Shown one piece after another: positions 13,551 through 31,961 of a DNA stretch of 32,000 nt. Position 1 is the first letter of the stretch. Each line of letters starts with the position of its first letter. Origin of the DNA: Halomicronema hongdechloris C2206 (GTDB lineage Bacteria; Cyanobacteriota; Cyanobacteriia; Phormidesmidales; Phormidesmidaceae); NCBI RefSeq assembly GCF_002075285.3, contig NZ_CP021983.2, positions 2,070,001 to 2,102,000 on the forward strand, given 5' to 3'. The notes under the pieces are model-generated. The model did not search any database. It saw nothing but the letters and a program-made list of their open reading frames with translations, and was not told the origin of the DNA. A program made the position numbers and the translations under genes.

Positions 13551-14525
13551 TCAGATTAAGCCAACTCTGAATAAAGCGTTACCCAACCAGGGAAATTCTA
13601 AGAGAAGTGGCAAAAGACGACCTTTAATAGGAGCAATATCTCTAAATGATTGAAATGCCAATTCAGAGTTACACTCATTTAGGATATTGGTATTTAATGA
13701 AATGCTATCTTCAAGGTTTTTGACCTGATGCCACCATCTTGGAGGAATATAGATCACTTCCCCTGGTTCTAATACCGCTTCTATGGGTTTGGCATGGGCA
13801 TAGAGTGGAAATTGATTGAGATTAGGACTGAAAGCATTCACTTCTCCGCCGTATAGGAAATCCCCTTGATCCGGTGAGAAAAATATGATTTTTTTGCGTC
13901 CAGAAGTCAATGCAACCCATGCTGGCAAATCGTATGAATCGATGTGGAGACCAATAGATGAATCTTTAGGGCCGATATACACGGTAGAGCGCTCCAGTCG
14001 ATATTTCTTTTGCAGTTCCATTGGTAAGCGTTCGAGCCAATTGGGAAAATAAACAGGCACATCATAATCTTGACGTAGCTCAGGAAAGGAAGAGAGCCGT
14101 AATTCTTCCAAATAAAGAGAGCGTTGACGATCGTGGCTAGCTAAGTAGTCGAGATAGTCTGCCAGTTTCATGGTGATGTCTTGATTCCGGCTTCTAATTC
14201 CCTCAGAACAATCTGTGACCGTCACATTGATCGAGCCATAGGTTGACCTAAAAAAATCCAACGTCCATTTTGTTAAGGCAGGCCAGTTTTTAATAACATC
14301 TGTGAGAATAACAGGCTTGCAAACAGAGGCGTAGTCTCTAATAAATTCTTCGTAAGAAAGTTGACTGCGGCGATCGATCAAAGCAACGGCTTCCCAGGAA
14401 ACCTTAAATTGTTTCTTTTGCCATACTCGTTTGAGAAAATAAGTGGCAAGCAATACGGTAATGCCTAAGATAGGTAAAGCAAGTCCTAACCAGAAAATAT
14501 TAAAATGAGAGAGCAGTAATTGCAT
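13551..14525 (-). CDS. Membrane-anchored JmjC/cupin_8-type Fe(II)/2-oxoglutarate oxygenase (putative tailoring hydroxylase)
   Basis: N-terminal TM helix 'IFWLGLALPILGITVLLATYFL'. HxD facial-triad motif 'GLHIDSYD', 'WVALTSGRKKIIFFSP', and the distal His in 'GEVIYIPPRWWHQVKNLEDSISLNTN'. It is the last gene of the minus-strand biosynthetic operon. Confidence 0.75.
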   Translation of the reverse strand: MQLLLSHFNIFWLGLALPILGITVLLATYFLKRVWQKKQFKVSWEAVALIDRRSQLSYEEFIRDYASVCKPVILTDVIKNWPALTKWTLDFFRSTYGSINVTVTDCSEGIRSRNQDITMKLADYLDYLASHDRQRSLYLEELRLSSFPELRQDYDVPVYFPNWLERLPMELQKKYRLERSTVYIGPKDSSIGLHIDSYDLPAWVALTSGRKKIIFFSPDQGDFLYGGEVNAFSPNLNQFPLYAHAKPIEAVLEPGEVIYIPPRWWHQVKNLEDSISLNTNILNECNSELAFQSFRDIAPIKGRLLPLLLEFPWLGNALFRVGLI

Positions 14526-14615
14526 TGTTATACCAGGATTAAGTATTTCAAATTAGGAAAACTATGAGGATAAAAAGCAATGGCCAGTTAGTTGCCAACA
14601 GTTTGACTTCTATTC

Positions 14616-17540
14616 TTAGTTTGTCTGATTAAGATAACTGTTTAACTGCTCAGCTAAGACTTGTACCTGAGGTTTAGCGAGCATCGTATAATGATTTCCA
14701 GGCACAACAACGACCTCTACTGATTCAGAAGAGAGTTGATCCCATCCCCAACTCAAATCATCGGGGTAAGCGGCTCCTTCATCGCTATCTTTGCCCTGGA
14801 AAAGCAGCAATCGCTCTGGGTAAATAATTTGAGGTAAATAGTTTTGATAAGCTCGCAAGTTGCTCTTATAAAGCTTGAATAAGAGACAGAATTGGTGAAA
14901 ATCAATATCAGTTGGCATTAAGTTAGCTGCCTGCAATTGGTCTAGGAAATAATTTAACTTCTCTGCGGTTGGCAGTTTCCGTAATGTGTTGAATCGATCG
15001 TGGAACGTTGATAAATCGTACCCAGCGGCACCAGCTATATCTCTAGCAAAACCGACTAATGCTGTAACATCAAAATCACTCTCAACCTCCGCAGGCTTGC
15101 TTCTGGAAATGGGCGCTGGATTATCTAGCAATGCCAGCAGTTCGATCAAATGCCCTTGCTTTTGCAATTGTTGTGCCATTTCAAACGCAATGAAGCTTCC
15201 CATTGACCAAGATACCAACAGGTATGGACCTTCTGGTTGAGCAAGACGAAGTGTTTCAATATAATGAGCTGCCATGTCTTCTATGCGAGTATAGGGTTCG
15301 CGATCTCCGTACAGACCGAGTGCTTGCAACCCATAGCACGGGCGATCGGTGCCCAAACTGCGTACCAGTTGGTTGTAGCAAAGGACTGTTCCACCCATCG
15401 AATGGATGAAAAATAGGGGTCTCTTAGAACCTTGTGACTGTATTTTAATTAGAGGGGCTTCAATGTCTGGTTTGCTAAATTTTGTGAATGATGAGTTTAC
15501 TGCTGTATATCCATATTTTGTTGTAGAACTGGGCTGTAAAAACTCAACCTCTTGCAATTCTACAACACTCTCCTTAACAGCTCGAATAACCTGCTCAATT
15601 TCTTCATCTGTGTGGGAAGTTGATAGAAAAAGTCGGCGATTTTCTAAGGCGTAAACCCCTTTTTCTAAAAGATGATAAAACAATAAATCTATTCCTTTGA
15701 GAGTAGATGGATGGGTAAAACGAAAAAGTGAACCAAAATGAACAACCTGAATAGGTAACTGTTTCTGTTCAAAATAAGTATTAAGCGTTGTAGCTAATTG
15801 TGTTGTCTTCCGAGTTAAGGTTTCCTGGAGTAATGGTCCACTATGCTTGAGATGGTTGAGTGCAGCCCAAGCGGCCGCCATGACAAGCGGGTGTTTAAAG
15901 TAAGTTCCTGCAAATATAGTGGTTTCTGTCTGAGGATATGACGCATCCCCATAGTTCCAAAAGCCACCATCCAAAGCATCCATCAAGGCAGCTTTACCCG
16001 CTACAGCACCAATGGGAAAACCCACCCCAATTGCCTTGGCATAGGTCGTTAAGTCGGCGCGAATATTCCATAGCGCCTGTACGCCTCCAGGGTGGGTACG
16101 AAAGCCAGTAATCACCTCGTCGAAAATCAGGACAACGCCTGCGCTCTCAGTCCATTGCCTCAATTCATGCAAAAACGCTTTGGGTTGAAAACCGGGTCGC
16201 TCACTCTGGACTGGCTCAACCAAAACAGCCGCCAATTCGTGAGCGTGGGCTTTCAAGATGTTAAGAGATTGAGGATTTCCATAGTCTAAAACGATGGCTT
16301 GATCAGCTTTATATGACGGGATTCCCGGTGCATTGGGTACAGAATCTGGTGTTCCATCTCCACTGGGAATCCCCGTCGCTAACACATCATCCAAATTGCC
16401 ATGAAATGAGCCAGTGAAAAAAGCAATCTTGGAACGTCCAGTGACGGCACGTGCAATTCGGATGGCTCCCTCTATCGCGTCTTTACCAGAATTGCAAAAA
16501 GCAACCCGTTCTTGCCCGGTCAACTCACAGATTAATTCAGCGACGTTACCTGCTAGCCGCGATTGGGGACCCAGTTGAATCCCTTGCTGAATCTGCTGTT
16601 GAATCGCTTCTACAACAAAAGAGGGGGAATGCCCGAACAGAAGCGCACCAAATCCCATTGACATATCAATGTACTCATTGTCGTCAATGTCCCAAATTTT
16701 GGCCCCAGCAGCTCGTTGCGTGTAAATTGGATATACTAATTCTTTGATAGCAAGATTGAACCCGCTGACGGCTCTGGGATTAGCATGACAGGGGCGGTGT
16801 ATTTGGGTGAGCTGTTTGGATTTTTGGGTGAGCTGGCTCAGACGCTCAATTAATCCTTCTAAATGGTTTTGTTGACGAGTGCTCAATGTCTCTTTTTGAG
16901 GAGCGATTGCCCTTTTAGGTGGACTTGTACGATTGCTTGAGTGATTTTGGTTTTCCTGAGGCAATGAGGTAGAGGTTGTTGTTTGCTGTATATCTAACGG
17001 CGTAGAGACAGGTGTTCTGGCTTCCGAAGGAGATAATGTTTGCTGCTTTGATAAAGTATTGTGGCGCAACAAGTCTAGCTGTTTAGCCATTACTTGAAGC
17101 TGTTGTGCCAAGAGCTGTTTGACAGCAGTATTAGGAGTTGATATTTTTGGGAAATTTTCCAGCAAAGATGTTCCATTTTGACTCACTGTAGAGCTAGTAG
17201 ACCGTTGTGATTCATTAACATCGGGAATAGACTCTGTTGCTGACTCTTCCAGAGGTCTCTGTTTAGAGATATAAATAGCAAGGTCGTGAATCGTTGGAGT
17301 ATTCTCAAGCAATAAACGTAGAGAAACATTGATATCAAACTGTTTTCTGACCGCTCCACTCAGTTGCAGGGTGTGAATGGACTCTAGCCCCATTTCAAAA
17401 AAATGGGTGTGAACATCGATCGCAGAAGGATGGACACCCAGGATATCACTGGCAATCCTTGTGAGTTCTCCCAGGATTCTCTGAGTTGATGCATCGATCG
17501 GGGAAGAATTTGATATCGGCTGAACTTGAGAATGAGTCAT
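14616..17540 (-). CDS. ACP - class-III PLP aminotransferase (AMT) - thioesterase tridomain protein
   Basis: ACP 'FFEMGLESIHTL' (Ser54, nt 17379-17381). GSA-aminomutase-like AMT with 'IDMSMGFGALLFGHSP', 'LIFDEVITGFR' and 'TYAKAIGVGFPIGAV' (Lys502, about nt 16035-16037). TE with 'PLFFIHSMGG', 'VSWSMGS' (Ser779, about nt 15204-15206) and 'VPGNHYTM'. Confidence 0.9.
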   Translation of the reverse strand: MTHSQVQPISNSSPIDASTQRILGELTRIASDILGVHPSAIDVHTHFFEMGLESIHTLQLSGAVRKQFDINVSLRLLLENTPTIHDLAIYISKQRPLEESATESIPDVNESQRSTSSTVSQNGTSLLENFPKISTPNTAVKQLLAQQLQVMAKQLDLLRHNTLSKQQTLSPSEARTPVSTPLDIQQTTTSTSLPQENQNHSSNRTSPPKRAIAPQKETLSTRQQNHLEGLIERLSQLTQKSKQLTQIHRPCHANPRAVSGFNLAIKELVYPIYTQRAAGAKIWDIDDNEYIDMSMGFGALLFGHSPSFVVEAIQQQIQQGIQLGPQSRLAGNVAELICELTGQERVAFCNSGKDAIEGAIRIARAVTGRSKIAFFTGSFHGNLDDVLATGIPSGDGTPDSVPNAPGIPSYKADQAIVLDYGNPQSLNILKAHAHELAAVLVEPVQSERPGFQPKAFLHELRQWTESAGVVLIFDEVITGFRTHPGGVQALWNIRADLTTYAKAIGVGFPIGAVAGKAALMDALDGGFWNYGDASYPQTETTIFAGTYFKHPLVMAAAWAALNHLKHSGPLLQETLTRKTTQLATTLNTYFEQKQLPIQVVHFGSLFRFTHPSTLKGIDLLFYHLLEKGVYALENRRLFLSTSHTDEEIEQVIRAVKESVVELQEVEFLQPSSTTKYGYTAVNSSFTKFSKPDIEAPLIKIQSQGSKRPLFFIHSMGGTVLCYNQLVRSLGTDRPCYGLQALGLYGDREPYTRIEDMAAHYIETLRLAQPEGPYLLVSWSMGSFIAFEMAQQLQKQGHLIELLALLDNPAPISRSKPAEVESDFDVTALVGFARDIAGAAGYDLSTFHDRFNTLRKLPTAEKLNYFLDQLQAANLMPTDIDFHQFCLLFKLYKSNLRAYQNYLPQIIYPERLLLFQGKDSDEGAAYPDDLSWGWDQLSSESVEVVVVPGNHYTMLAKPQVQVLAEQLNSYLNQTN

Positions 17541-17622
17541 CAGCAGTTCCTTGGTTTGCTATATTCTTGTGTGACTGAGGGATATCGCGACTGCGTTGCT
17601 CTGGTGTAATCTAAACGTGAGA

Positions 17623-20600
17623 TTATTCATGCAGATTGAGTAGGTCTAGCTGTTGGGATATAATTTCTAGCTGTTGAGTAATTAGTTGTTCTAAGCTATG
17701 TTTTTCTAATTTGGTTTCGGTGCCAGTTTCTTGGTTATTTATTTCTTCTGAATTGATAGATTGATTGGGTTCACCCCTAGACAACGACTCTGGTGGCTCT
17801 AATTCATTAGAAACTTCAAAAGCATTACCTGTTTTGTGGCTGCTATGCTTCAAGTCTAATGGAGCGGGATTGTTCTTTGATGGTGCAGATGGCGGTGGCA
17901 AATTGTTGGTTTTAGGAGACTCAATCCAATAGCGCTGGCGTTCAAATGGATAGGTGGGCAAATGGACACGATGGCGTTGTTCGTAGGCGTAAAATCCTGA
18001 CCAGTCGATCGGTACACCAGCAAGCCAAAGATTTCCCAGGGTGTTGAGCAAGAATGCCATATCAGACTGTTGCTGATGGGGATGGCGGAGTGAAGCCAGA
18101 ACTGACGGTGAAGGGGATGAATCTGCATCAGGCTGGACGGCTAACTGACTCAATGACCCTCCCGGACCCACTTCCAAAAGGATTCGCTCCGGTTCTTGCT
18201 GCAAGATTGCCATATTCTCAGCAAACCGCACAGGCTGGCACATATGCTTTGCCCAGTAAGCGGGAGCAGTCGCCTCGTCAGGTGTAATCCAAGTCCCTGT
18301 GACATTGGATAAGTAAGGGATTTTAGGCGGCTGGAGATTAAAGGTTTTTGTCAGCTCGATTAGGGGAGTGGCGATCGGTTCTAGCATTCTGGAATGAAAG
18401 GCATGAGAGGTTTGTAACCGGCAATAGGCGAAACCCTTTTCGGTTAAATGCTGAATTAATTCATCCACAGCGTCCGTAGAACCTGAAATAACACAGAGAG
18501 AGGGAGCTTGAATTGCCGCAAGGAATAGATTTTCCTTCAACAAAGGGGCTACTTCTGCCGCTGAAAGGGGAACAGCCAGCATCGCTCCCCCTGGCAATTC
18601 CTGAATCATCTGGGCTCTTTTTGTAACCAGGGTTAGGGCATCCTCTAGAGACATGACCCCAGCCAGGCAAGCGGCAACATATTCACCGATACTATAGCCC
18701 AGCATTACCTGAGGATAAATCCCCCACGACATCCACAATTGAGCTAATGCATATTCAATGATGAAGAGAATCGGTTGAGCCAGGAAGGTTTGATTTAATG
18801 TCTGGGTGGCGGTATCCGCCTGTCCTTCAGCACGAGCTAGCAGTTTACGGAAATCGAGGCGGGAATTAGGGGAATTGCGATCGATCTCCTCTTGCATATC
18901 AGGGTTGGTTCGGTCTTTGCCAGGATACAACACGTCGCGTAAATCCAGACCTAAAAGAGGCTGAAGAAAGTTGCAACACTGATCAACCTGGTTTCGAAAC
19001 GTGGATTCGCCCTGATACAGGTGCCAAGCCATGTTGACATAGTGGGTGCCTAATCCGGGAAACAGAAACGCGACGGGACGTCCTCCCCGGGGTTGATGGT
19101 AAGTTAGGACTCGTTTGGCATCTTGAAATGCAGTAATGGCATCGTTAACATCGCGGCAGACAACGGCTCGACGATGGCTAAATGCTCGACGACCGAGTTG
19201 CAACGTATAAGCGACATCCGCCAGGTTGAGGTCAGGATTTTGTTGGAGATAATCCACGAAATTGGCAGTTGCCGTCTCTAGGGCAGTGCTTGTTTTGGCG
19301 GATATCACCAGGAGTTGCCAGGGGCGAGAGTTTCCAGAAGGCGCTTGCGGCGGCGCTTCTTCTAAAACCACATGGGCATTGGTTCCTCCAAGCCCAAAGG
19401 CGCTTACCCCTGCCCGTCTGGGGATTCCGTTGGTTTCCCAATCGGTCAGTTTGGTATTGACATAGAAAGGAGTGTTGGTAAAGTCTATTTCTGGATTAGG
19501 GTGTTCAAAGTGCAATGTGGGGGGAATCTGTTGATGCTTAAGGGCCAGTAATGTTTTAATCAAACCAGCAACACCGGCGGCTCGATCAAGGTGACTAATA
19601 TTGGTTTTTACTGAACCGATCGCACATTGTGCCTGTTTGGTAAAGCCATCCCATCTTTCCTGATTCCTTCCGGCACAAAACACATTGTCCAGTGCCCTGA
19701 TTTCAATCGGATCTCCCAAAGCGGTTCCGGTTCCGTGGGTTTCGATATACGTGATTGTTTCGGGAGCAAAGCCAGCGATCGCCTGGGCATCGGCAATCAC
19801 TTCGGCTTGGCCGGTGACGCTGGATGCAGTAAAACTCACCTTCTCAAATCCATCGTTATTAATAGCTGAGCCCTTAATCACGGCATAAATTGAGTCACCA
19901 TCTCCTAAAGCCTCTTCTAGTCTTTTAAGTACCACAACTCCCACCCCACTGCCGAACGGACAACCTTCGGCTTTGGCATCAAATGCCCGACAGTGACCAT
20001 CTGAAGAAGCCATTCCACCCTCTTGATAGAAATAACCCTGCTTTTGTGGAACGGTGATTGAGACACCTCCAGCCAACGCCAGATCGCAGTCGTAGTTCAG
20101 TAATCCCCGACAAGCTAAGTGAATGGCAACAAGTGAGGTAGAACACGCGGTACTCACATTAACACTGGGTCCCTTCAAGTTAAGCTTGTAGGAAACCCGT
20201 GTGGCTAGGAAGTCTTGGATATTGCCAATGTTAATGGATAAAGACCCTACTGTTTGGATCGAGTCAGGATTGGGAATGAGATTGTTTAAGCAATAACTAC
20301 TTGAGGCGCTTCCGGCATAAACCCCAATTAATCCTGCCTTTGAAGACTCATAGCCTGCATTCTCCAGGGCAGACCAGGCAGATTCCAAGAAAAACCGGTG
20401 CTGCGGGTCAGTGATTTTAGCTTCCCGCGGTGTAAATCCAAAGAACGAAGCATCAAACCATTCAATGTCGTCCAGCGCAAATCCCGCCTTGACATAGTTG
20501 GGGTCGTGTAACCAAGTTGGATCTACCCCTGAAGCCAGTAGCTCCTCATCGGAAAAGAATGAAATAGACTCCACGCCATTGCATAAATTTTGCCAAAACT

Positions 20601-20688
20601 GTTCAACACTCCTGGCTCCCGGAAACCGACCGGCTATGCCAATGATGGCTATGCCCTCCAAGGACGGATCGCGCTTCATCTCATCCAT
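17623..20688 (-). CDS. Type I PKS, KS-AT didomain with no carrier domain, ending in a low-complexity tail and a coiled-coil-like helix
   Basis: KS motifs 'STACSTSLVAIH', 'ETHGTGTALGDPIE' and 'KTNISHLDRAAG'. AT motifs 'GYSIGEYVAACLAG' and 'SHAFHS' (malonyl-type HAFH). The post-AT linker is 'YPFERQRYWI'. It ends in '...LEQLITQQLEIISQQLDLLNLHE'. The start overlaps the upstream stop in ATGGATGA (20681-20688). Confidence 0.9.
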   Translation of the reverse strand: MDEMKRDPSLEGIAIIGIAGRFPGARSVEQFWQNLCNGVESISFFSDEELLASGVDPTWLHDPNYVKAGFALDDIEWFDASFFGFTPREAKITDPQHRFFLESAWSALENAGYESSKAGLIGVYAGSASSSYCLNNLIPNPDSIQTVGSLSINIGNIQDFLATRVSYKLNLKGPSVNVSTACSTSLVAIHLACRGLLNYDCDLALAGGVSITVPQKQGYFYQEGGMASSDGHCRAFDAKAEGCPFGSGVGVVVLKRLEEALGDGDSIYAVIKGSAINNDGFEKVSFTASSVTGQAEVIADAQAIAGFAPETITYIETHGTGTALGDPIEIRALDNVFCAGRNQERWDGFTKQAQCAIGSVKTNISHLDRAAGVAGLIKTLLALKHQQIPPTLHFEHPNPEIDFTNTPFYVNTKLTDWETNGIPRRAGVSAFGLGGTNAHVVLEEAPPQAPSGNSRPWQLLVISAKTSTALETATANFVDYLQQNPDLNLADVAYTLQLGRRAFSHRRAVVCRDVNDAITAFQDAKRVLTYHQPRGGRPVAFLFPGLGTHYVNMAWHLYQGESTFRNQVDQCCNFLQPLLGLDLRDVLYPGKDRTNPDMQEEIDRNSPNSRLDFRKLLARAEGQADTATQTLNQTFLAQPILFIIEYALAQLWMSWGIYPQVMLGYSIGEYVAACLAGVMSLEDALTLVTKRAQMIQELPGGAMLAVPLSAAEVAPLLKENLFLAAIQAPSLCVISGSTDAVDELIQHLTEKGFAYCRLQTSHAFHSRMLEPIATPLIELTKTFNLQPPKIPYLSNVTGTWITPDEATAPAYWAKHMCQPVRFAENMAILQQEPERILLEVGPGGSLSQLAVQPDADSSPSPSVLASLRHPHQQQSDMAFLLNTLGNLWLAGVPIDWSGFYAYEQRHRVHLPTYPFERQRYWIESPKTNNLPPPSAPSKNNPAPLDLKHSSHKTGNAFEVSNELEPPESLSRGEPNQSINSEEINNQETGTETKLEKHSLEQLITQQLEIISQQLDLLNLHE

Positions 20689-23600: not shown

Positions 23601-25411
23601 TCAACGTTAGATTGGTCTCCTGATTCCTGATTCCTGACTCCTGGCTCCTCATCTGGATAGAGAACTTGTCGTAGATCTAAACCGAGATGAGGTTTAAGCA
23701 ATTCGCAACAGCGATCGACTTGCTCAGTAAATGCCAGCTCGGTATGGTAGAGTTCCCGCGCCATATTGACATACTGGGTTCCCTGTCCCGGAAACATGAA
23801 CACAAGGGAACGATGACCGAGTTCTTGATAATGAGACAAAACTTGTTGAGAATCAGGCGAGCTTAGGGCTTGTGTGGCGTCATTTGAGTTTTGACAAATT
23901 ACCATGCGGCGATGCTCAAATCCTCGGCGCCCCACTTGCAGGGTATAGGCTACATCGGCAAGGTTACAATCAGGATGGTGCTGAAGGTAATTTACTAAGT
24001 TAACTGTAGCAGTGTCTAAAGCGGTACTGGTTTTGGCAGAGAGGAATAATAACTGCCAGGGACGAGAAGAGTCAGAAACTTCGATGGGAGGCGCTTCTTC
24101 CAGAATTACATGGGCATTAGTGCCACCAATTCCAAACGAACTAACACCAGCGCGACGAGGGGTACCGTTTGTTTTCCATTCAGCAAGTTGGGTATTGACG
24201 TAGAAAGGACTGGTGGCGAAATCAATTTTAGGATTGGGTTTCTCAAAGTGTAGGCTAGGCGGAATTTGCTTGTGTTCAAGGGCAAGAACGGTTTTGATCA
24301 GACCCGCCACTCCTGCTGCTGCATCCAAATGTCCAATATTGGTTTTAACAGAACCGATCGCACAGAATTGCTTCTGTTGCGTTTTTACCCGAAAGGCTTG
24401 GGTCAGAGCAGCGATTTCAATTGGATCGCCAAGAGAGGTTCCCGTCCCGTGAGCTTCGACATAGGTGATGGTATCCGGCTCAACTTCTGCGATCGCTTGA
24501 GCTTTCCGAATAACCTTTGCCTGACTATCGATACGAGGGGCTGTATAGCTGACCTTGAAAGAACCGTCGTTGTTGGTGGCTGAGCCTTTGATTACAGCGT
24601 GGATTGTGTCTCCATCAGCAAGGGCGTTTTTTAGTCGCTTCAACACGACAATTCCTACACCACTGCCTCTTACCGTTCCTTGGGCTTTGGCATCAAAGGC
24701 ACGACAATGACCATCTGGAGAATTAATGCTACCTTCTTGATACAAGTAACCAGAGGATTCTGAAATGGAAACGCCTCCTGCCAATGCCAGATGGCATTCA
24801 CCACCAAGCAAGCTACGACAAGCCATATGAACGGCAACTAGTGAGGTGGAGCAGGCGGTTTGAATATCGACACTTGTGCCCTCCAGGTTCAGCTTATAGG
24901 ACACACGGGTCGTGAGAAAATCTTTGTCGTTGGAGATCACCAGTTGATAGGGATCGACAGAGGCTGCAAAGCTGCCTGCTGCATAACGCTTGAGCATGTA
25001 GCCGTTCAATCCTGTACCTGCATAAACTCCGATCGCTCCTCGATAGGTTTCAGCGTCATAGCCAGCCTGTTCAAGGGCTTCCCAGGCACACTCTAGAAAC
25101 AGTCGATGTTGTGGGTCTGTAATTTCTGCTTCTTTAGCACTGAAGCCGAAAAACGAGGCATCAAATAATTCGATGTTCTCTAAAACGCCTGCTGCTCTGA
25201 CATATTGAGGATGATCTAGCAACGCTGATTCAACTCCCAGAGCAATTAGTTCTTTATCATTAAAGAACGAAATTGATTCCACTCCATTTTTTTGGTTTTC
25301 CCAAAATTTTTCAATGGTATTTGCCTTGGGAAAGCGCCCACTCATGCCAATAATGGCTATTTCTAAGCCATTTGTCTGATTTTTCGTCACTAATGGGTTG
25401 ATTCTACTCAT
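20681..25411 (-). CDS. Type I PKS module KS-AT-KR-ACP
   Basis: KS motifs 'QTACSTSLVAVH', 'EAHGTGTSLGDPIE' and 'KTNIGHLDAAAG'. AT motifs 'GHSIGEYVAACLAG' and 'SHAFHS' (malonyl-type). KR motifs 'YLITGGLGGIGL' and '...VDYCAANAFLD', with no LDD motif seen. ACP motif 'LDLGGDSLLTVQV'. Confidence 0.9.
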   Translation of the reverse strand: MSRINPLVTKNQTNGLEIAIIGMSGRFPKANTIEKFWENQKNGVESISFFNDKELIALGVESALLDHPQYVRAAGVLENIELFDASFFGFSAKEAEITDPQHRLFLECAWEALEQAGYDAETYRGAIGVYAGTGLNGYMLKRYAAGSFAASVDPYQLVISNDKDFLTTRVSYKLNLEGTSVDIQTACSTSLVAVHMACRSLLGGECHLALAGGVSISESSGYLYQEGSINSPDGHCRAFDAKAQGTVRGSGVGIVVLKRLKNALADGDTIHAVIKGSATNNDGSFKVSYTAPRIDSQAKVIRKAQAIAEVEPDTITYVEAHGTGTSLGDPIEIAALTQAFRVKTQQKQFCAIGSVKTNIGHLDAAAGVAGLIKTVLALEHKQIPPSLHFEKPNPKIDFATSPFYVNTQLAEWKTNGTPRRAGVSSFGIGGTNAHVILEEAPPIEVSDSSRPWQLLFLSAKTSTALDTATVNLVNYLQHHPDCNLADVAYTLQVGRRGFEHRRMVICQNSNDATQALSSPDSQQVLSHYQELGHRSLVFMFPGQGTQYVNMARELYHTELAFTEQVDRCCELLKPHLGLDLRQVLYPDEEPGVRNQESGDQSNVELQAPNFEFSLNDTIYAQPALFVIEYAFAKLWMSWGVNPTAMIGHSIGEYVAACLAGVFSLEDALALVATRGRLMQQCPLGAMLAVQCSEQQIQPLLGAALSLAGSNAPSSCVVSGPTEAVEQLQQKLQEQNISCRRLHTSHAFHSEMMEPILQPFTQALQGVKLNPPTIPFISNLSGTWMTPSEAIDPHYWTQQLRQPVCFSAGIREVLTKPKQILLEVGPGRTLSTFAKQHQPDELVTLTSVRHLKEQKSDIAVLLTTLGRLWLMGVKVDWAVFYAHERRHRLPLPTYPFERQRYWIDLQKQPQRVAAPFKEKSKSRKLDIADWFYLPFWKPALPPVLLDQDELHQSSCILVFLDECGLGSQIVTNLQQQNHEIITVSIGSHFTQWNEKEYSLNPQQQEDYHVLFKALLKHNQFPTKIIHSWTVTSHNFPNLGFEQVNKLQDLGFYSLLFLAQALGKQAITDDVQITVISNQMQSVTGGEPLCPEKATVLGPVRVISREYPNLHCRSIDVEFPIPEHWQVENLAEQLLAELTTPSPDLVIAYRGRQRWVQAFEPVRFDRPPARTVRLKPGGVYLITGGLGGIGLTLAQHLAKTVQAKLILIGRSAFPPREAWQHWLTTHDEQDKISCKIQIILELEALGSEVQIISADVTQFEQMQAVVDQSCAQFGQINGVIHAAGVPGGGVIQRKTPDEVERILAPKVKGTRILEAVFKDIPLDFLVLCSSLTSIQGGFGQVDYCAANAFLDVFAHHHFLSSSHRSVFSINWDAWQEVGMAVDTTVPFNLQAWRAETLQQKILPQEGAEVFDRLLGRTIPQVVVSTCDFLTQIEQENAGEDSNFLETLEKVNLSKPTHPRPELNNPYVAPRNELEQTLAEIWQELLGVELVGIYDNFLDLGGDSLLTVQVRSKMRDRLHQDFPIADLFEYPTISALAEHLSQEIAKRPVFQHAQDRAKQKQVAIQNNQQRMKQRRKPNG

Positions 25412-25434: not shown

Positions 25435-28400
25435 TTATTCTTCTCTTTTTAATAGTTGATTAAGCAAATCTTTTTCCATGTTTATCTCCTTATCAATTTC
25501 TTTCATGGATTCGGAAGATGTCTCATCTTTTGTCTTGCTAAAATAATCTGCCAAGGAACTGATGGTTGGTAGCTTAAACATTTCTATTAACGAAATCTCC
25601 GATGAGAATAATTCACTAAGCTGACTATGGACCTGAACCATTAGTAAGGAATGACCACCAAGATCAAAGAAGTTATCGTGAATACCGATTTTTTCGACAT
25701 TAAGAACCTTTCGCCAAATCGCAGCTATAGCCTGTTCAGTCTCGGTTCTTGGTATGACATAGGCAACTTTTAATTCTGGTCTGCCAGTCTCTGGCATAGG
25801 CAGGGATCGCCGATCGACCTTGCCATTAGGGGTCAATGGCAGCGCTTCGAGTTCCATAATGGTTGCAGGCACCATGTACTCGGGCAGCTTGCCTCGCAGG
25901 AAGCGACGCAACTCTGTGGTTGACAGCGCCGCTTCTGGACGGGGTACCGCATAGCCCACCAGCTGCTGGTCTCCGTGGTCACTGGTGCGAGCAATGATTA
26001 CCGTTTGTGATACGGTCGGGTGCTGGGAGAGCACACTCTCAATCTCACCGATTTCAATGCGGAAGCCGCGTATCTTCACTTGGTGGTCGATTCGCCCCAG
26101 ATACTCGAGAATGCCATCTGCTCGATATCTGACCAGGTCCCCGGTCTTGTATAGCCTTGTCCCGGGCTCCACACTGAAGGGATTGGGGATAAAGCACTCG
26201 GCTGTCAACTCCGGCCGCTGGTAATAGCCTCGGGCTAGCTGAACACCACCAATGTGCAATTCACCTGGCACCCCAATGGGAGTGGGTTGTCCGGCTTTGT
26301 CCAATACATACACCTGAGTGTTGGCAATGGGACGGCCAATCGGGACACTATTTTCAACCTGATGAGGATCACAGGCCCAAGCCGTCACATCAATTGCAGC
26401 CTCAGTAGGACCATACAGGTTGTGCAAATTAGCCTCAAGACGTTTAAAGTAGTGCTGATGAAGCTTCAGTGGAAGCGCTTCGCCACTACAAATGACATGC
26501 CTCAGGCTTTTACAGTATGACTCTAGCTGCAGCTCTTCTAGAAAGACTTGCAGCATAGATGGCACAAAGTGCAGGACACTTACCTGTTCTTGAGCAATGA
26601 ACTTAGCCAAGTAATGACTATCTTGATGCCCACCGGGTTGAGCAACCGCTAAGGATGCCCCTGTCATCAGAGGCCAGAAAAACTCCCATACTGAGACATC
26701 AAAACTAAAGGGGGTCTTTTGTAGGACTCGGTCAGCTTGCGTCAGCTGATAGGTCTCTTGCATCCACTGCAAACGATTGCACACCCCTTGGTGAGTATTC
26801 ATCGCTCCTTTTGGCTGTCCCGTCGAGCCAGAGGTGTAGATAACGTAACTGAGATGAGAGCTTGCAGTAGGTCTCGAGGGATTGGTGGCATCTGATGTCG
26901 CTATTGCTGCCCAGTTAGCCTCCAAGCATAAGCATAGGGTGTGAGTCCCATTAGGCAAGACATCTACGAGAGCCATGTGGGTAAGCACAAGGGGTACTTG
27001 AGCATCCTGCACCATGAAGGCTAGACGCTCATGGGGATAGGTTGGATCCAGAGGCACATAAGCGCCCCCCGCTTTCAGCACCCCTAACAGCGCAATCACC
27101 ATCGCTACTGAGCGTTCGAGACAGACCCCCACCAAGGTTTCAGGTCCCACCCCCTGGCCCTGCAGGTAATGGGCCAGTTGATTGGCGCGACGATTCAACT
27201 CGTCATAGGTCAGGTGCTGCTGCTCAAACACCAGCGCCACTGCCTCCGGGGTACGCTCCACTTGCGCTTCAAATAACTCATGGAGACAAGCCTCTGGATA
27301 CTCAGCCTCCGTCTGATTCCACTCCACCAGAAGACGCTGCCGCTCAGCAGAGGTCAACAGGGGTAGGTCACTAACCCGCTGCTCCGGCTGCCTCACCACC
27401 GCCGTTAACACCTGCTGCAGATGCGTGATGAGACGTGCCATGGTCGCCGCGGCAAATAAGTCGGTGTTGTACTCTAGCTGCCCTTGCAACCCCGCCTCAC
27501 CCTCTTGCAGCGATAGAGTCAGGTCAAATTTGGCGCTTTCTGGAGCACTCTCGAGTACCTCCACCGCTACCCCTGGCAAGGCCAACGATTCCTGGGGCGC
27601 ATTCTGCAGGATAAACATCACCTGAAACAGGGGGGAATGACTCAATGCCCGCTCCGGCTGCAGCAGTTCCACCACCTGCTCAAAGGGCATATCCTGATGG
27701 GCATAGGCCCCTAAGGTCACCTCCCGTACCCGCTGCAATACCTCCACAAAGGAGGGCTGCCCCGCCAAGGATGTGCGCAACACTAAGGTATTGACGAAAA
27801 AGCCAATCAACCCTTCCACTTCCCTACGGGTGCGGTTGGCAATGGGAGAGCCCACCACGATGTCCGCTTGGCCGCTGTAGCGACTCAACACCACTTGAAA
27901 GGCAGCCAGCAGTGTCATAAACAGGGTGCAGTTCTGCTGCCGACTCAACTGCTTCAATCCCTGGGTTAACTCTGGGGTAATTCCAAAGGCTTGAGTCGCT
28001 CCCCGGAAGGTCTGCACCGCCGGACGAGGATGGTCCGTGGGTAACTCAAGCACTTCCGGGGCACCTGCTAACTGCTGCTGCCAGTACTGCCGCTGTTGCT
28101 CTAGCACCTCACCGTGGAGCCACTGCCGCTGCCAAGCCGCATAGTCTAGATACTGAACCGGTAGGGGGGATAAGGAAGGGGCATGACCTGTGACAATAGC
28201 CCCATAGAGCTGAGCCACTTCTCTGACTAAAATGCCCATTGACCAGCCATCGGAGACGATGTGGTGCATGGCAAACACCAGCACCTGCTCCTGCTGGGAA
28301 CATTGCAGCAGGACGACGCGAAGCAAGGGGGGCTGGTCGAGGGAAAAAGGCTGATGGGTGATGCTCCCAGTCAGCTGTTGGACCCCTTGCTCCTGCCCTT

Positions 28401-29376
28401 GGGCTGTTAGGTCTTGCAGGTCGATGACCGCCAGGGGCACCTCTACAGTGGGATGGAGATCTACGGCAGGATGGCCCTCTTGGCTGACAAACCCGAGGCG
28501 CAGGGCCTCATGACGCTGCAGGAGAATCTGGAGACTGGCCTGGAGGGCGTCAATGTCAAGGGAACCGTGTAGTCGCAGGGCACTCGACAGGTGATAGAAG
28601 GGACTTTCTGGTTCGAGTTGGGCCAAAAACCACAGCCGTTGTTGGGCAAAGGAGAGGGGTAAGGGGCCGCTGCGCTCGATAGTGGTTATGGGAGGACTGG
28701 TGAGGCCCTGTTCCTCATGGAGGGCAGCTTCAATGACAGGCGCTAACTCAGCAATGGTGGGATGCTCAAAGAGGCGACGCAGGGGCACCTCTACGGCAAA
28801 GGCGTGACGCACGTGCGACATCACCCGGGTTGCCAGCAGGGAATGGCCGCCTAACTCAAAGAAGTTGCTCTGGATGCTGACGGTCTCTAGCTTCAGCACG
28901 TCTGCCCAAATGCTCACGAGCATCGCTTCGATGGGGGTGCGAGCTGCAACCGTTGCTGAAGTGTCTAGGTGCTGATACTCGGGGGCTGGTAGGGCTTTGC
29001 GGTCGACTTTGCCATTGGGGGTGAGGGGCAATTCCTTCAGCAGAACCATGGCTGCAGGCACCATGTAGTCGGGAAGCTGCTCTTGCAGGTAACGCCGTAA
29101 CGCTGAGGGGGAGAGACTGGCAGTGGCAGGGACGACATAGCCCACTAACTGTGGCTCGCCTGAGGCATTCTGGTGAGCGACCACCACGGCTTGTGAGACA
29201 GATGAATGGCGCAGCAGCACCGTTTCAATTTCACCTAGTTCAATGCGGAAGCCCCGCAGCTTCACTTGATGGTCGAGGCGACCCAGGTATTCCAGGCTGC
29301 CATCGCGGCAATACTTGACTAAGTCCCCAGTCTTGTACAGACGGGCCCCAGGTGTGGGGCTAAAGGGATTGGGCAC
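25435..29376 (-). CDS. NRPS, distal part of a frameshift-split gene: (A7-A10 of module 1)-T-C-A(Ser-like)-T
   Basis: It begins mid-A-domain: 'PNPFSPTPGARLYKTGDLV' (A7), 'GRLDHQVKLRGFRIELGEIE' (A8) and 'NGKVDR' (A10). Next come T 'FFELGGHSLL' and LCL-type C ('LSFAQQRLWFL', 'MHHIVSDGWS'). A full A domain follows (A3 'YVIYTSGSTGQPKG', 'FDVSVWEFF', 'NLYGPTEAAIDVT'), then T 'FFDLGGHSLL'. The track's start codon is a GTG artefact. Confidence 0.9.
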   Translation of the reverse strand: MPNPFSPTPGARLYKTGDLVKYCRDGSLEYLGRLDHQVKLRGFRIELGEIETVLLRHSSVSQAVVVAHQNASGEPQLVGYVVPATASLSPSALRRYLQEQLPDYMVPAAMVLLKELPLTPNGKVDRKALPAPEYQHLDTSATVAARTPIEAMLVSIWADVLKLETVSIQSNFFELGGHSLLATRVMSHVRHAFAVEVPLRRLFEHPTIAELAPVIEAALHEEQGLTSPPITTIERSGPLPLSFAQQRLWFLAQLEPESPFYHLSSALRLHGSLDIDALQASLQILLQRHEALRLGFVSQEGHPAVDLHPTVEVPLAVIDLQDLTAQGQEQGVQQLTGSITHQPFSLDQPPLLRVVLLQCSQQEQVLVFAMHHIVSDGWSMGILVREVAQLYGAIVTGHAPSLSPLPVQYLDYAAWQRQWLHGEVLEQQRQYWQQQLAGAPEVLELPTDHPRPAVQTFRGATQAFGITPELTQGLKQLSRQQNCTLFMTLLAAFQVVLSRYSGQADIVVGSPIANRTRREVEGLIGFFVNTLVLRTSLAGQPSFVEVLQRVREVTLGAYAHQDMPFEQVVELLQPERALSHSPLFQVMFILQNAPQESLALPGVAVEVLESAPESAKFDLTLSLQEGEAGLQGQLEYNTDLFAAATMARLITHLQQVLTAVVRQPEQRVSDLPLLTSAERQRLLVEWNQTEAEYPEACLHELFEAQVERTPEAVALVFEQQHLTYDELNRRANQLAHYLQGQGVGPETLVGVCLERSVAMVIALLGVLKAGGAYVPLDPTYPHERLAFMVQDAQVPLVLTHMALVDVLPNGTHTLCLCLEANWAAIATSDATNPSRPTASSHLSYVIYTSGSTGQPKGAMNTHQGVCNRLQWMQETYQLTQADRVLQKTPFSFDVSVWEFFWPLMTGASLAVAQPGGHQDSHYLAKFIAQEQVSVLHFVPSMLQVFLEELQLESYCKSLRHVICSGEALPLKLHQHYFKRLEANLHNLYGPTEAAIDVTAWACDPHQVENSVPIGRPIANTQVYVLDKAGQPTPIGVPGELHIGGVQLARGYYQRPELTAECFIPNPFSVEPGTRLYKTGDLVRYRADGILEYLGRIDHQVKIRGFRIEIGEIESVLSQHPTVSQTVIIARTSDHGDQQLVGYAVPRPEAALSTTELRRFLRGKLPEYMVPATIMELEALPLTPNGKVDRRSLPMPETGRPELKVAYVIPRTETEQAIAAIWRKVLNVEKIGIHDNFFDLGGHSLLMVQVHSQLSELFSSEISLIEMFKLPTISSLADYFSKTKDETSSESMKEIDKEINMEKDLLNQLLKREE
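26218..26337. repeat. ~120-nt direct repeat, copy 1 (A5/A6 region of the module-2 A domain)
   Basis: Hand alignment with 29403-29522 shows about 13 mismatches in 120 nt. Both copies encode 'PIANTQ.YVLDKAGQPTPIGVPGELHIGG..LARGYYQRPELTAE'. Confidence 0.8.
27044..27320. repeat. 277-nt direct repeat, copy 1 (C-A linker to A2 motif of the module-2 A domain)
   Basis: Hand alignment with 30205-30481 has no gaps and about 20 mismatches (roughly 93% identity). Both copies encode 'WNQTEAEY..ACLHELFEAQVER.PEAVALVFEQQHLTYDELNRRANQLAHYLQGQGVGPETLVGVCLERSVAMVIALLGVLKAGGAYVPLDP'. Confidence 0.85.
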
Positions 29377-31961
29377 AAGCGTTCTGCTGTTAACTCGGGG
29401 CGCTGGTAATAGCCTCGGGCTAGCCCCATGCCACCAATGTGCAGTTCACCTGGCACCCCAATGGGAGTGGGTTGTCCGGCTTTATCCAGCACATATAGCT
29501 GAGTGTTGGCAATGGGCTGGCCTAAGGGCACTGTCTCACACTCAGCCCTCAGTTCACTCACCGCAGACCAAATCGTCGTCTCGGTCGGTCCATACAGGTT
29601 CCAGACCCCTGCACTGCGAGCGTACAACTGATGGGCTAACTCCAATGGCAAGGCGTCCCCGCCACAGAACACTAGCAATGCAGATGACCCGGACCACTCC
29701 GTTGACATCAGCATCTGCCAGGTGGCTGGAGTCGCTTGCAGCACTGTCGCGTCAAATTGCTCTAGTCGCCGAGCCAAATGATGAGCATCACAGGCGACCT
29801 CTCGACTCACCACCTCCAATCGAGCTCCTTGAAGGAGTGGCAGGTATAACTCCAAGGCTGCAATGTCAAAAGCGACGGTTGTGACTGAGACCAGTCGGTC
29901 CTCAGCCCTGAGCCCTGGATACTCAGCCATGCTATATAGGAAGTTGCTCAACGCCTGATGGGGAATCTGGACGCCTTTGGGGGCTCCGGTGGACCCTGAG
30001 GTGTAGATCACATAGCTGAGCTGCTCGAGTGCGGTAACTGGAGCAGGAGGATAGCTGGGGCTCTCAGCAATGCAGTCCCAATCGGTGTCTAGGCACAGAG
30101 GGGAAACTGAGGTGGGTAGCACGCCAACGTGAGCTGCTTGCGTTAGCAAACAACGGGCCTGTGCGTCTTCTAGGATATAGGCCAGTCGCTCTTGAGGGTG
30201 GCTCGGATCCAGAGGCACATACGCACCCCCCGCTTTCAGCACCCCTAGCAGTGCAATCACCATCGCCACCGAGCGCTCTAGACATACCCCTACTAAGGTT
30301 TCAGGTCCCACGCCTTGGCCCTGCAGGTAATGGGCCAATTGATTGGCCCGACGATTCAACTCGTCATAGGTCAGGTGCTGCTGCTCAAACACTAGCGCCA
30401 CTGCCTCCGGGCTGCGCTCCACTTGCGCTTCAAATAACTCATGGAGGCAAGCCTCTGAATACTCAGCCTCCGTCTGATTCCAGTCAACTAAAATATGCCG
30501 TTGTTCTTGTTCGCTAAAGAGGGAAAGCTCTGATATAGGTAATTTATAGTCAGTAACAACAGACGCTAATAAATTTTGGAAATGTGAAGTTAGGTCAGCA
30601 ATAGTAATTTCATTAAATAAATCTAGACTGTACTCTACTTGTCCTCGAATTGCTTGATCGACTTCAGACAAATTAAAACGTAATTCAAATTTTGTTGTTT
30701 CGCTTTCTATTGGAAAAGTCTCTAAGTTCAAGCCAGACAGCCTTAGTTCATCTACAGAAGCAAGCTGAAAATCAAACTTGACTTGAAATAGTGGATTGAC
30801 TCGACTGAGATCTCGTTCGGGCTTTAAATACTCAACTAATCTTTCAAAAGGCAGATCTTGATGAGCATAAGCTTCTAGTGTTACTTCACGAACTTTTTGT
30901 ACTACCTCTTGAAAGGTAAAACTGCTGTTCAGCTTTGTTCGTAGCACTAATGTATTTACTAAGAGGCCAATTAATCCCTCAGTTTCGATCTGGTTTCGAT
31001 TAGCAATATCAGTGCCTATAACAATGTCTTCTTGATTGGAATATTTATAAAGTAAGATCTTAAATGTTGTCAATAGTAAGACAAACAAGCTTATCCCTTC
31101 TTGGGCACTCAGTTGCTTCAACGCTGCAGTAAGCGGTCTTGACAATGTAATAGGATATCGACCTCCACGAAATGTTGGTGTAGTTGGTCGAGACTTATCC
31201 GTCGGAAGTTCTAGCATCGACATATCAGCAAGCTGCTGGTGCCAATAGCTCAGCTGTTTTTCTAATCTCTCTCTCTGTAGCCATTGCCGTTGCCAGAGTG
31301 CCCAATCCGCATATTGAATTGGCAAATCAAGCAGGGGAGACGGTTCACCTTTTGAAAACGCTTCATAGAGGGCCTTAAATTCTCGTGTTAGGATGCCCAA
31401 AGACCAGCGATCAGCAATAATATGATGAAGTGTTAGTAGCAACACATGATCTGTCTCACCTAGACGCAGAAGAGCAAGCCTCGAGGATGATTGAGAAAGA
31501 TCAAAAGGCAGCTGTGAAATTTGTCTAACTAAATCTTGAGATTCTGAAGTTAGCTGAGGTACTTGAGTCAGATCAAAAACAGGCAATCTCACAGAAGTTG
31601 ACTCAATAACCTGCATGGGGTTTCCTTCATCGTCGCTTATAAAGCGAGTTCGCAAGGTTTCATGGCGCCTGAATAGCTCATGAAAAACTCGATACAGTAT
31701 TGCTATTTTAAGCTCACCCCGAAGACGTAGTGCTAAAGGAATATTGTAGGCTGTGTTCGATGGATCGAGTTGCTGAATGAACCATAATCTTTGTTGAGCA
31801 AAGGATAAAGGTGGATTATCTGAGCCTTCTCGCTTAGGAATTATCTGAGACTCGGAATACTGCAATTGCTTTTGCTTTAGCCGAAGCTCAAGCAACTTCC
31901 TTTGCTTGGGTGATAGGGTGGCAATTTGTTGAGAAAGATCTTCTGACATGACTAGATCCAA
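29319..31961 (-). CDS. NRPS, proximal part of a frameshift-split gene: N-terminal docking region - C - A(Gly-like, A1-A6 only)
   Basis: LCL-type C ('LSFAQQRLWFIQQL', 'LHHIIADRWS'). A-domain motifs 'LTYDELNRRANQLA', 'LKAGGAYVPLDP', 'YVIYTSGSTGAPKG', 'FDIAALELY', 'NLYGPTETTIW' and 'GELHIGGMGLARGYY'. The reading then runs out of frame ('ERLCPIPLAPHLGPVCTRLGT*'). The start is TTG 31961 or, more plausibly, ATG 31949 ('MSEDLSQQ'). Confidence 0.9.
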   Translation of the reverse strand: MDLVMSEDLSQQIATLSPKQRKLLELRLKQKQLQYSESQIIPKREGSDNPPLSFAQQRLWFIQQLDPSNTAYNIPLALRLRGELKIAILYRVFHELFRRHETLRTRFISDDEGNPMQVIESTSVRLPVFDLTQVPQLTSESQDLVRQISQLPFDLSQSSSRLALLRLGETDHVLLLTLHHIIADRWSLGILTREFKALYEAFSKGEPSPLLDLPIQYADWALWQRQWLQRERLEKQLSYWHQQLADMSMLELPTDKSRPTTPTFRGGRYPITLSRPLTAALKQLSAQEGISLFVLLLTTFKILLYKYSNQEDIVIGTDIANRNQIETEGLIGLLVNTLVLRTKLNSSFTFQEVVQKVREVTLEAYAHQDLPFERLVEYLKPERDLSRVNPLFQVKFDFQLASVDELRLSGLNLETFPIESETTKFELRFNLSEVDQAIRGQVEYSLDLFNEITIADLTSHFQNLLASVVTDYKLPISELSLFSEQEQRHILVDWNQTEAEYSEACLHELFEAQVERSPEAVALVFEQQHLTYDELNRRANQLAHYLQGQGVGPETLVGVCLERSVAMVIALLGVLKAGGAYVPLDPSHPQERLAYILEDAQARCLLTQAAHVGVLPTSVSPLCLDTDWDCIAESPSYPPAPVTALEQLSYVIYTSGSTGAPKGVQIPHQALSNFLYSMAEYPGLRAEDRLVSVTTVAFDIAALELYLPLLQGARLEVVSREVACDAHHLARRLEQFDATVLQATPATWQMLMSTEWSGSSALLVFCGGDALPLELAHQLYARSAGVWNLYGPTETTIWSAVSELRAECETVPLGQPIANTQLYVLDKAGQPTPIGVPGELHIGGMGLARGYYQRPELTAERLCPIPLAPHLGPVCTRLGT
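29403..29522. repeat. ~120-nt direct repeat, copy 2 (A5/A6 region of the module-1 A domain)
   Basis: See 26218-26337. Confidence 0.8.
30205..30481. repeat. 277-nt direct repeat, copy 2 (C-A linker to A2 motif of the module-1 A domain)
   Basis: See 27044-27320. Confidence 0.85.

Follow-up and report, generated by a model that had tools for sequence, protein, structure and literature searches.

A mosaic, probably impaired NRPS-PKS locus of probable metallophore type in the cyanobacterium Halomicronema hongdechloris C2206

What does the hybrid non-ribosomal peptide synthetase (NRPS)-polyketide synthase (PKS) locus of Halomicronema hongdechloris C2206 make, do the transport genes beside it belong to the same pathway, and is this copy still able to function? 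The locus lies in a stretch of 32 kb (positions 1-32000), referred to here as the window, which a first-pass annotation had read as a collinear NRPS-PKS line in a siderophore-type setting. Our analysis indicates that the window probably contains the downstream half of a hybrid NRPS-PKS line of metallophore type, together with accessory and transport genes, in a mosaic and probably impaired copy. An aminotransferase (AMT), a JmjC oxygenase, an MbtH-like protein and a cassette of AMIN-TonB receptor, binding protein and major facilitator superfamily (MFS) transporter mark a cyanobacterial metallophore-type family. Given these markers, the product most likely serves metal (iron) acquisition, with its chelating residues encoded upstream. 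We regard the locus as a real but possibly inactive cluster, an orphan variant within an established type of system and not a new type.

The assembly line and its predicted product

Domains were called with Pfam on the listed open reading frames (ORFs). The domain order of the first-pass annotation was recovered; its count of five genes was not, because a frameshift splits the C-A-T-C-A-T synthetase (C, condensation; A, adenylation; T, thiolation) in two and leaves six ORFs:

29319-31961, minus strand: NRPS part 1, with a docking-like N-terminal segment, C1 (about 30489-31814, motif HHIIADR; Pfam Condensation 359 bits) and the core of A1 (about 29406-30434, Gly-like code; AMP-binding 302 bits)
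25435-29376, minus strand: NRPS part 2 (Pfam), with the C-terminal subdomain of A1, T1 (about 28741-28920), C2 (about 27328-28662), the Ser-like A2 (about 26221-27273 plus its C-terminal subdomain) and T2
20681-25411, minus strand: PKS module 1 (Pfam; deposited as ASC71030.1), with ketosynthase (KS, 24242-25363), acyltransferase (AT, 22796-23803, GHSIG and HAFH), ketoreductase (KR, 21290-21886) and acyl carrier protein (ACP, 20801-20995)
17623-20688, minus strand: first protein of PKS module 2 (Pfam; deposited as ASC71029.1), with KS (19504-20658), AT (18034-19068, GYSIG and HAFH) and a long low-complexity C-terminal tail
14616-17540, minus strand: second protein of PKS module 2 (Pfam; 100% identical to a protein known from H. 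hongdechloris C2206), with ACP (17268-17465), class-III aminotransferase (15573-16733) and thioesterase (TE, 14643-15422)
13551-14525, minus strand: JmjC/Cupin_8 2-oxoglutarate oxygenase (Pfam Cupin_8 121.8 bits against a cut-off of 27.4)

The first ORF has its probable true start at the ATG at 31949 and an out-of-frame end at the TAG at 29319; its product of 876 amino acids is deposited as ASC71032.1. Except for the broken A1 frame, the core domain sets of the NRPS and PKS proteins (C, A, T, KS, AT, KR and ACP) are complete with their catalytic residues. C2 carries the canonical HHxxxDG motif, the carrier-protein serines (GGHS) are present in NRPS part 2, and catalytic or attachment residues were found in the T, KS, ACP, AMT (the pyridoxal phosphate (PLP) lysine) and TE (Ser, Asp and His) domains. 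In the ACP-AMT-TE protein a PP-binding domain (residues 26-91) is followed by Aminotran_3 (residues 270-656, 188 bits), then by a Thioesterase domain (114 bits) and the stop codon. The ACP serine, the PLP lysine (TYAKA) and the TE residues Ser (SWSMG), Asp and His are conserved in the ACP-AMT-TE proteins P0001-P0004. The KR sequence shows neither the LDD signature of B-type nor the Trp signature of A-type stereochemistry.

The start of the KS-AT gene overlaps the stop of the PKS module 1 gene by 8 nt (20681-20688), which suggests translational coupling; the remaining junctions of the assembly line are gaps of 23-90 nt, consistent with a single operon. The active site of C1 (about 31370-31400, minus strand) reads HHIIADRWS, with Arg where HHxxxDG normally has Gly.

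Stachelhaus codes were taken from a MAFFT alignment of the window's A domains and 17 relatives to GrsA, the reference sequence differing from PDB entry 1AMU at residue 2 of 531 only. This gave DILQFGLIWK (Gly-like) for A1 and DVWHISLIDK (Ser-like) for A2, identical to the codes previously extracted by hand. The multiple alignment is preferred because a pairwise local alignment of A1 with GrsA misplaces gaps and yields a wrong code (DILAVCLI-K). Both AT domains carry the malonyl-type HAFH motif, as had been reported. The AT of the second PKS module has GYSIG in place of the usual GHSIG (18690-18710, minus strand); since this variant is conserved in L009, L081, L082/L083, L010, L013 and L023 (L numbers designate the loci fetched for comparison), it is a feature of the lineage and not a sign of decay.

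The domain order and the intact motifs suggest a biosynthetic route. A chain from subunits encoded beyond nt 32000 would dock on the NRPS N-terminus and be extended with Gly (A1) and then Ser (A2), the MbtH-like protein probably assisting the A domains. KS-AT-KR-ACP would add malonate and reduce the keto group, giving a serine-derived γ-amino-β-hydroxy unit. KS-AT and ACP-AMT-TE would then add a second malonate, the PLP-dependent AMT would turn the β-keto group into a β-amine, and the TE would release the product with a C-terminus of 6-N-acyl-3,6-diamino-5,7-dihydroxyheptanoate. The δ-lactone release and the exact skeleton put forward in the first-pass annotation are speculative, hydrolysis being compatible with the sequence as well. 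The membrane-anchored JmjC 2-oxoglutarate oxygenase would hydroxylate a carbon of the product and, in relatives, two methyltransferases (MTs) would probably N-methylate the new amine. The collinear logic proposed in the first-pass annotation (Gly, Ser, a ketoreduced two-carbon unit, a transaminated two-carbon unit, TE) agrees with the intact catalytic motifs and with the closest relative, L081, in which the block of Ser-A, PKS, PKS-AMT-TE and JmjC is kept.

The line appears to begin outside the window. C1 scored far higher against LCL-type structures of a peptidyl carrier protein with a C domain in the PDB (TycC6, 268 bits; fuscachelin, 237 bits) than against DCL-type ones (SrfA-C, 101 bits; TycB, 113 bits), in line with the LCL type assigned to it earlier. 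Its N-terminal 45 residues (MSEDLSQQIATLSPKQRKLLELRLKQ...) carry the motif MSD..IAxLSPxxRxLL, which matches NRPS subunits of L088 and L084, each preceded by another NRPS gene, and the stand-alone C protein of L008. The N-terminus that had been called docking-like is therefore one common to mid-line NRPS subunits of related clusters. Together, the LCL type of C1 and this mid-line motif make upstream modules beyond nt 32000 likely; the chain handed to C1, whether peptidyl or acyl, would most likely come from a protein encoded in that region. A search for relatives of C1 gave no close one (best identity 56%).

The JmjC oxygenase, its clade and the transport genes

The JmjC protein finds its best PDB matches in JMJD6, JMJD5, JMJD7 and FIH; with these and TYW5 it shares the Cupin_8 fold family, the HxD...H iron triad and the 2-oxoglutarate lysine, whereas the window enzyme is bacterial, membrane-anchored and encoded inside secondary-metabolite clusters. 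All 13 clade members compared retain the iron triad (H194, D196 and H266) and the 2-oxoglutarate lysine (K211) unchanged. Most of the clade also shares two further features, a transmembrane helix at the N-terminus and a conserved hydrophobic tail at the C-terminus (LLPLxLEFPWLG..GLL), which suggest that the protein is a membrane-anchored tailoring enzyme. The clade is small, with about 26 sequence clusters at an identity of at least 45%, and all its named members are cyanobacterial. Known Asp β-hydroxylases of siderophore pathways belong to the TauD/SyrP family, not to JmjC; the JmjC hydroxylase may be a tailoring enzyme relevant to metal binding.

Four clade contexts were fully annotated with Pfam, and all lie in NRPS/PKS clusters with AMT, MT or TauD genes. 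Nostoc NIES-4103 (L008) has the order JmjC, C, TauD, C-A(DLTKIGEVGK)-T and KS-AT-ACP-AMT-TE, followed by AMT, MT, MbtH and a PvdQ-type acylase, and a Calothrix locus (L001) resembles it in ORF layout and by tblastn. Chroococcidiopsis (L088) has KS-AT-KR-ACP, KS-AT, ACP-AMT-C-TauD, JmjC, C-A(Asp)-T, C-A(Ser)-T-C and TauD. The gene is embedded between PKS genes in L086 (C-TauD, C-A(Asp)-T, PKS, JmjC, PKS) and stands beside an AMT gene in L084 (NRPS-reductase, MT, ORF, JmjC, AMT). L089 also lies in a PKS cluster, with no AMT, MT or TauD gene within the locus. In L089 and L090, both from microbial-mat metagenomes, the JmjC-clade gene stands beside Asp_Arg_Hydrox (PF05118) and sulfotransferase-like genes, downstream of a KS-AT-cMT-KR-ACP PKS (cMT, C-methyltransferase), so that the same oxygenase clade occurs in a different tailoring neighbourhood.

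The tailoring and transport genes of the window have contiguous counterparts in L091, which carries on one strand A(Orn-like)-T-C-A(Ser)-T-reductase, AMT, MT, MT, JmjC, MbtH, AMIN-TonB receptor, Peripla_BP_2 and MFS_3. Protein identities between the window and L091 are 54% for JmjC, 73% for MbtH, 43% for the receptor, 27% for the binding protein and 55% for the MFS transporter. In the window the corresponding genes and their neighbours are arranged as follows:

502-1521, minus strand: Sfp/HetI-type phosphopantetheinyl transferase (PPTase; Pfam ACPS and AASDHPPT_N; NCBIfam HetI 225 bits, below the cut-off of 370)
1545-2303, minus strand: type II thioesterase (TEII; Pfam Thioesterase 180 bits)
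2325-2552, minus strand: MbtH-like protein (Pfam MbtH 82 bits)
2589-2942, minus strand: small ORF between the MbtH and TonB receptor genes
2974-3318, minus strand: second small ORF between the MbtH and TonB receptor genes
4094-6730, plus strand: TonB-dependent siderophore receptor with an N-terminal AMIN domain (Pfam AMIN, Plug and barrel)
6748-7788, plus strand: periplasmic binding protein, Peripla_BP_2, iron-siderophore type (Pfam)
8002-9300, plus strand: MFS_1/MFS_3 efflux-type transporter, a putative exporter (Pfam)

Pfam and NCBIfam thus returned all the neighbours that had been named before: the receptor, Peripla_BP_2, MFS, MbtH, TEII and a HetI-like PPTase. With 483.9 bits the receptor clears the cut-off (223.5) of the siderophore-receptor model TIGR01783; the binding protein matches the NCBIfam models FecB, FepB and FhuD weakly, in each case below the cut-off. 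The fusion of AMIN to a TonB-dependent receptor is reported to be exclusive to cyanobacteria and includes the cyanochelin receptor CctA, and the cyanochelin uptake and export cassette has the order cctA-cctB-cctC, that is receptor, binding protein and MFS transporter (preprint 10.64898/2026.07.30.741596). The window shows the same order, and its cassette also resembles the predicted anachelin cluster and the transport genes of L066, with identities to L066 proteins of 51% (MFS), 42% (receptor) and 34% (binding protein). The MbtH-like protein is 73-78% identical to those adjoining AMT/JmjC clusters in L046, L008, L048, L001 and L091; in Nostoc LEGE 06077 (L046), MbtH and then TEII lie directly downstream of AMT-TE (78% and 61% identity). 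Of the two small-ORF products, that of 117 amino acids has an unexpected Pfam CBF_beta match (31 bits against a cut-off of 25) and that of 114 amino acids matches no family; neither ORF has a homologue in any fetched locus.

The GC content at third codon positions (GC3) is low (0.38-0.46) in the JmjC gene, AMT-TE, both PKS genes and C1, and also in the genes for the receptor, the binding protein and the MFS transporter (0.42-0.45). TEII and PPTase are GC-rich (0.62), as is the block of the NRPS described below. The siderophore reading of the first-pass annotation therefore gains comparative support from L091, from the JmjC contexts of TauD/β-hydroxy-Asp type and from the low GC3 common to transport and PKS genes. 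On balance, the gene sets of the relatives and the shared low GC3 argue that transport genes, MbtH and PKS line probably form one metallophore-type cluster, which insertion sequence (IS) elements would then have inverted and truncated.

Rearrangement of the locus and competing explanations

The closest relative is the metagenomic contig L081 (ENA ERZ26692634). Its colinearity with the window spans nt 26848 to 13549, with a nucleotide identity of 84-89%; blastn aligns the two at 83.6% identity from 26848 down to 17063 and finds nothing comparable upstream. Its order is C-A(Ser, DVWHFSLIDK)-T, KS-AT-KR-ACP, KS-AT, ACP-AMT-TE and JmjC, followed by two MTs and then two ABC exporters (ABC_membrane/ABC_tran). 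Protein identity is 76-88% for PKS module 1 (piecewise tblastn), 89% for KS-AT and 88% for JmjC. L009, a small contig from an Elainellaceae metagenome-assembled genome, matches part of the region, with protein identities of 94% (AT2 segment) and 79% (first 430 residues of ACP-AMT-TE). Synteny with L081 breaks exactly at the stop codon of the JmjC gene (13549), where the window continues into IS debris, and a search of the IS region for remnants of the L081 MT and ABC genes found none. The break at this stop codon together with the debris indicates that the Halomicronema locus was rearranged by IS elements there, and the debris now separates the transport, MbtH and TEII genes from the JmjC gene. 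The features concerned, and the GC-rich block discussed below, are as follows:

9301-13550, no strand assigned: 4.2 kb of IS debris (Pfam and ORFs; families IS110, IS630, IS5 and ISL3)
9490-9861: IS110-family C-terminal fragment
9888-10118 and 12864-13448: IS630 DDE_3 fragments (two or three pieces)
10313-11256: IS5-type transposase, split into two overlapping ORFs (10313-10570 and 10549-11256)
11299-12207: ISL3 fragment
12262-12900: helix-turn-helix fragments
26850-30450, no strand assigned: GC-rich, host-like block (0.56-0.60, from the GC profile) covering A1, T1, C2 and the first ~140 amino acids of A2

A1 is interrupted by a 1-nt frameshift (29374..29384, minus strand) between core motifs A8 and A9, where the sequence at 29377/29376 reads GAACGCTT^GTGCCC; the equivalent stretch of module 2 reads ELTAECFIPNPFS. 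Past the shift, the first frame runs for 19 more codons to the TAG at 29319, and the second frame gives the usual continuation of an A domain between A8 and A9. One added T restores an uninterrupted C-A-T-C-A-T protein of 2175 amino acids. The GTG that starts the second ORF sits exactly at the shift (29376), and GenBank annotates the NRPS halves as separate coding sequences. For the genome assembly (~72x), 454, Solexa and PacBio data were combined; the genome is reported to be IS-rich, and other frameshifts in it were verified by the authors (PMC6416890). Both a true mutation and a 454-type homopolymer error are possible.

The NRPS is also a compositional mosaic. Against a genome mean of 54.6% GC (PMC6416890), the host-like block is flanked by low-GC cluster sequence (0.40-0.49), and its downstream boundary falls where nucleotide colinearity with L081 begins (26848). 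At the protein level A1 and A2 agree at 90-100% of positions in their first 90 residues and at 77-90% around motifs A6-A8, but at no more than 23-63% in the specificity pocket; direct DNA repeats between the modules (D1-D3) mark the conserved A1/A2 stretches. The pattern looks like that expected from recombination at conserved A-domain flanks. A simple insertion of the Gly module into a C1-A(Ser) ancestor finds no support, since the C-domain end of L081 is nearer to C2 (55%) than to C1 (40%); the event looks instead like replacement by a diverged homologous block. The locus would in this respect be a case of natural module engineering, a GC-rich A-T-C block having been spliced into an A domain at its conserved N-terminal stretch. 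Taken together, the A1 frameshift, the swapped host-like block and the IS debris in place of MT and ABC exporter genes suggest that this copy is probably impaired.

Several observations weigh against a functional metallophore pathway. Chelator-forming genes are absent from the 32-kb window, as had already been pointed out: no TauD, Asp-specific A domain, salicylate or catechol genes or N-hydroxylase was found. In a Fur-box scan with the 19-bp E. coli consensus, cyanobacterial FurA sites being poorly defined, no site scored above chance, the best having 6 mismatches where shuffled sequence gave 4-6. Compared with L091, the transport cassette lies in inverted orientation, and it is set apart by IS debris, so its adjacency to the line could be secondary, and L081 has ABC exporters and MTs but no TonB cassette within 10 kb. 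Finally, unless the frameshift that splits A1 is a sequencing error, the line may no longer work. An alternative is that the line makes, or formerly made, a non-siderophore peptide-polyketide of protease-inhibitor-like or cytotoxic type, the proximity of the TonB receptor, binding protein and MFS genes being an accident of IS rearrangement. The two MTs and two ABC exporters that follow JmjC in L081, the position of the 4.2 kb of debris exactly at the synteny break and the lack of chelator genes in the window all fit such a product. So does the predicted Ser-derived γ-amino-β-hydroxy unit, as statine-like units of this kind are typical of protease inhibitors. We nevertheless consider this explanation quite unlikely, because L091 has JmjC, MbtH, AMIN-TonB receptor, binding protein and MFS contiguous beside its AMT/MT set (with the MFS transporter and MbtH 55% and 73% identical to those of the window), JmjC-clade genes are located in TauD/Asp clusters, and the transport genes have the foreign, low GC3 of the PKS genes and not the composition of the host.

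A decaying relic without a product, its module 1 inactivated and its tailoring and export genes deleted by IS elements, would be compatible with either ancestral function, and we take it as a serious possibility that falls short of probable. In its favour, A1 is frameshifted and its halves are deposited separately, in a three-technology assembly of ~72x and an IS-rich genome with other verified frameshifts (PMC6416890), and five kinds of IS fragment stand where L081 has its MT and ABC genes. Against this, all remaining ORFs of the line (~5,900 codons) run without a break and keep their catalytic residues, a single T missing from a short T run is the error expected of 454 sequencing, and translation of the second ORF might in principle resume at the GTG at 29376. 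A metallophore-type line of mosaic structure, in a probably impaired copy, is our preferred account of the window. We find it rather doubtful that the set of AMT, JmjC, (MT), MbtH and AMIN-TonB genes marks an uncharacterised class of cyanobacterial metallophores whose C-terminus is turned into a (methylated) amine and hydroxylated by a membrane-anchored JmjC enzyme. On that view the Halomicronema/L081 lineage would form the terminus by ACP-AMT-TE release, leaving a 3,6-diamino-5,7-dihydroxyheptanoate end group, and hydroxylation by JmjC would make or complete a new metal-binding motif.

If the family does make metallophores, it would add new tailoring chemistry, with a JmjC hydroxylase instead of or beside TauD, and a new release logic in which a β-amino acid formed on-line by the AMT is freed directly by the TE. 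Since the Halomicronema copy may be inactive, its practical value lies in pointing to intact relatives of the L081/Elainellaceae and L091 types. The interest of the locus lies chiefly in its rare AMT-TE release and in the combination of JmjC, AMT, MT and AMIN-TonB genes.

Comparison with known systems

To our knowledge, few cyanobacterial metallophores of NRPS type have been characterised, namely anachelin, the cyanochelins, the leptochelins, the lusichelins and fatuamide. No characterised cyanobacterial metallophore cluster matches the core of the window, a match that the first-pass annotation had named as evidence against its reading. Leptochelin was rejected as a counterpart (a salicylate/Cy-domain line without AMT), as were fatuamide (without AMT), the lusichelins (salicyl-thiazoline) and cyanochelins B and C (reductase or NRPS-TE ends).

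The cyanochelin system (ccs/cct) of Leptolyngbyaceae, which makes β-hydroxy-aspartate siderophores and was compared together with the wider cyanochelin-like clusters, is likewise a hybrid NRPS/PKS of filamentous cyanobacteria with an AMIN-TonB receptor followed by a binding protein and an MFS transporter. The likeness extends to relatives in the JmjC clade: L008, L086 and L088 have the C-plus-TauD arrangement and Asp/Asn A domains, and L008 has a PvdQ-type acylase like ccsQ. The window differs from the cyanochelin clusters in having no TauD, interface C domain, Asp-specific A domain or fatty acyl-AMP ligase, and it lacks the permease and ferredoxin-like genes of the cct cassette. The start of the line would lie beyond nt 32000, and TauD and Asp-specific modules could be encoded there too. 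Termination also differs: by a reductase (ethanolamine) in cyanochelin B, by an NRPS-module TE in cyanochelin C and by a PKS AMT-TE in the window.

For anachelin, the reference architecture was that of the predicted cluster (PMC4247773, 2014). Both systems extend Ser by two malonates, and in both an aminotransferase and MTs (those of the window's relatives in our case) make the terminal amine. Anachelin has its two ketides in reduced form (Atha) and close to the N-terminus, whereas in the window the second would be transaminated on-line and C-terminal; the anachelin AMT is stand-alone and acts on a reductase-released Tyr aldehyde, whereas that of the window is embedded. The difference from anachelin drawn in the first-pass annotation is thereby borne out, the second PKS module having no KR and carrying AMT-TE. 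The window also differs in having no salicylate genes, reductase domain, MT or thioredoxin-like (Suc_Fer-like) gene. L066 (Anabaena sp. WFMT, NZ_JBPWOA010000021.1, 1-17424) has C-A-T-reductase, MT, AMT and two small ORFs, followed by MFS, Suc_Fer-like, binding protein, TonB receptor and AraC genes; because this layout matches the published anachelin prediction for Anabaena cylindrica, it is probably an anachelin-type cluster.

Embedded AMT domains as such are well known from the mycosubtilin/iturin, microcystin/nodularin, puwainaphycin and microginin pathways. As in the window, the synthetases concerned (MycA/ItuA, McyE/NdaF and those of puwainaphycin and microginin) have Aminotran_3 fused immediately behind the ACP of a KS-AT-ACP module, retain the PLP lysine and share the predicted on-line conversion of a β-keto thioester to a β-amine. 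In systems of the MycA/McyE type a C domain after the AMT passes the chain on, whereas in the window the next domain is a TE, which makes the β-amino acid the C-terminal residue; the ACP-AMT-TE of the window is also a protein separate from its KS-AT. Hundreds of cyanobacterial homologues have ACP-AMT followed by a C domain, and in the large majority of the homologues found the AMT is succeeded by a C domain or by nothing. Only a handful of proteins have the AMT directly followed by a TE, namely P0001-P0004 and the fused KS-AT-ACP-AMT-TE proteins of Nostocales, including that of L008. A full-text literature search for the domain string AMT-TE or ACP-AMT-TE found no description of it. The unit follows Ser plus a ketide in the window, Gly in L082 (JGI 3300039108; DILQLGLVWK) and an Asn-like DLTKIGEVGK module beside TauD in the Nostocales loci L008, L001, L046 and L048. 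Judged from these settings, ACP-AMT-TE with its KS-AT looks like a portable and reusable release unit that would make C-terminal β-amino acids.

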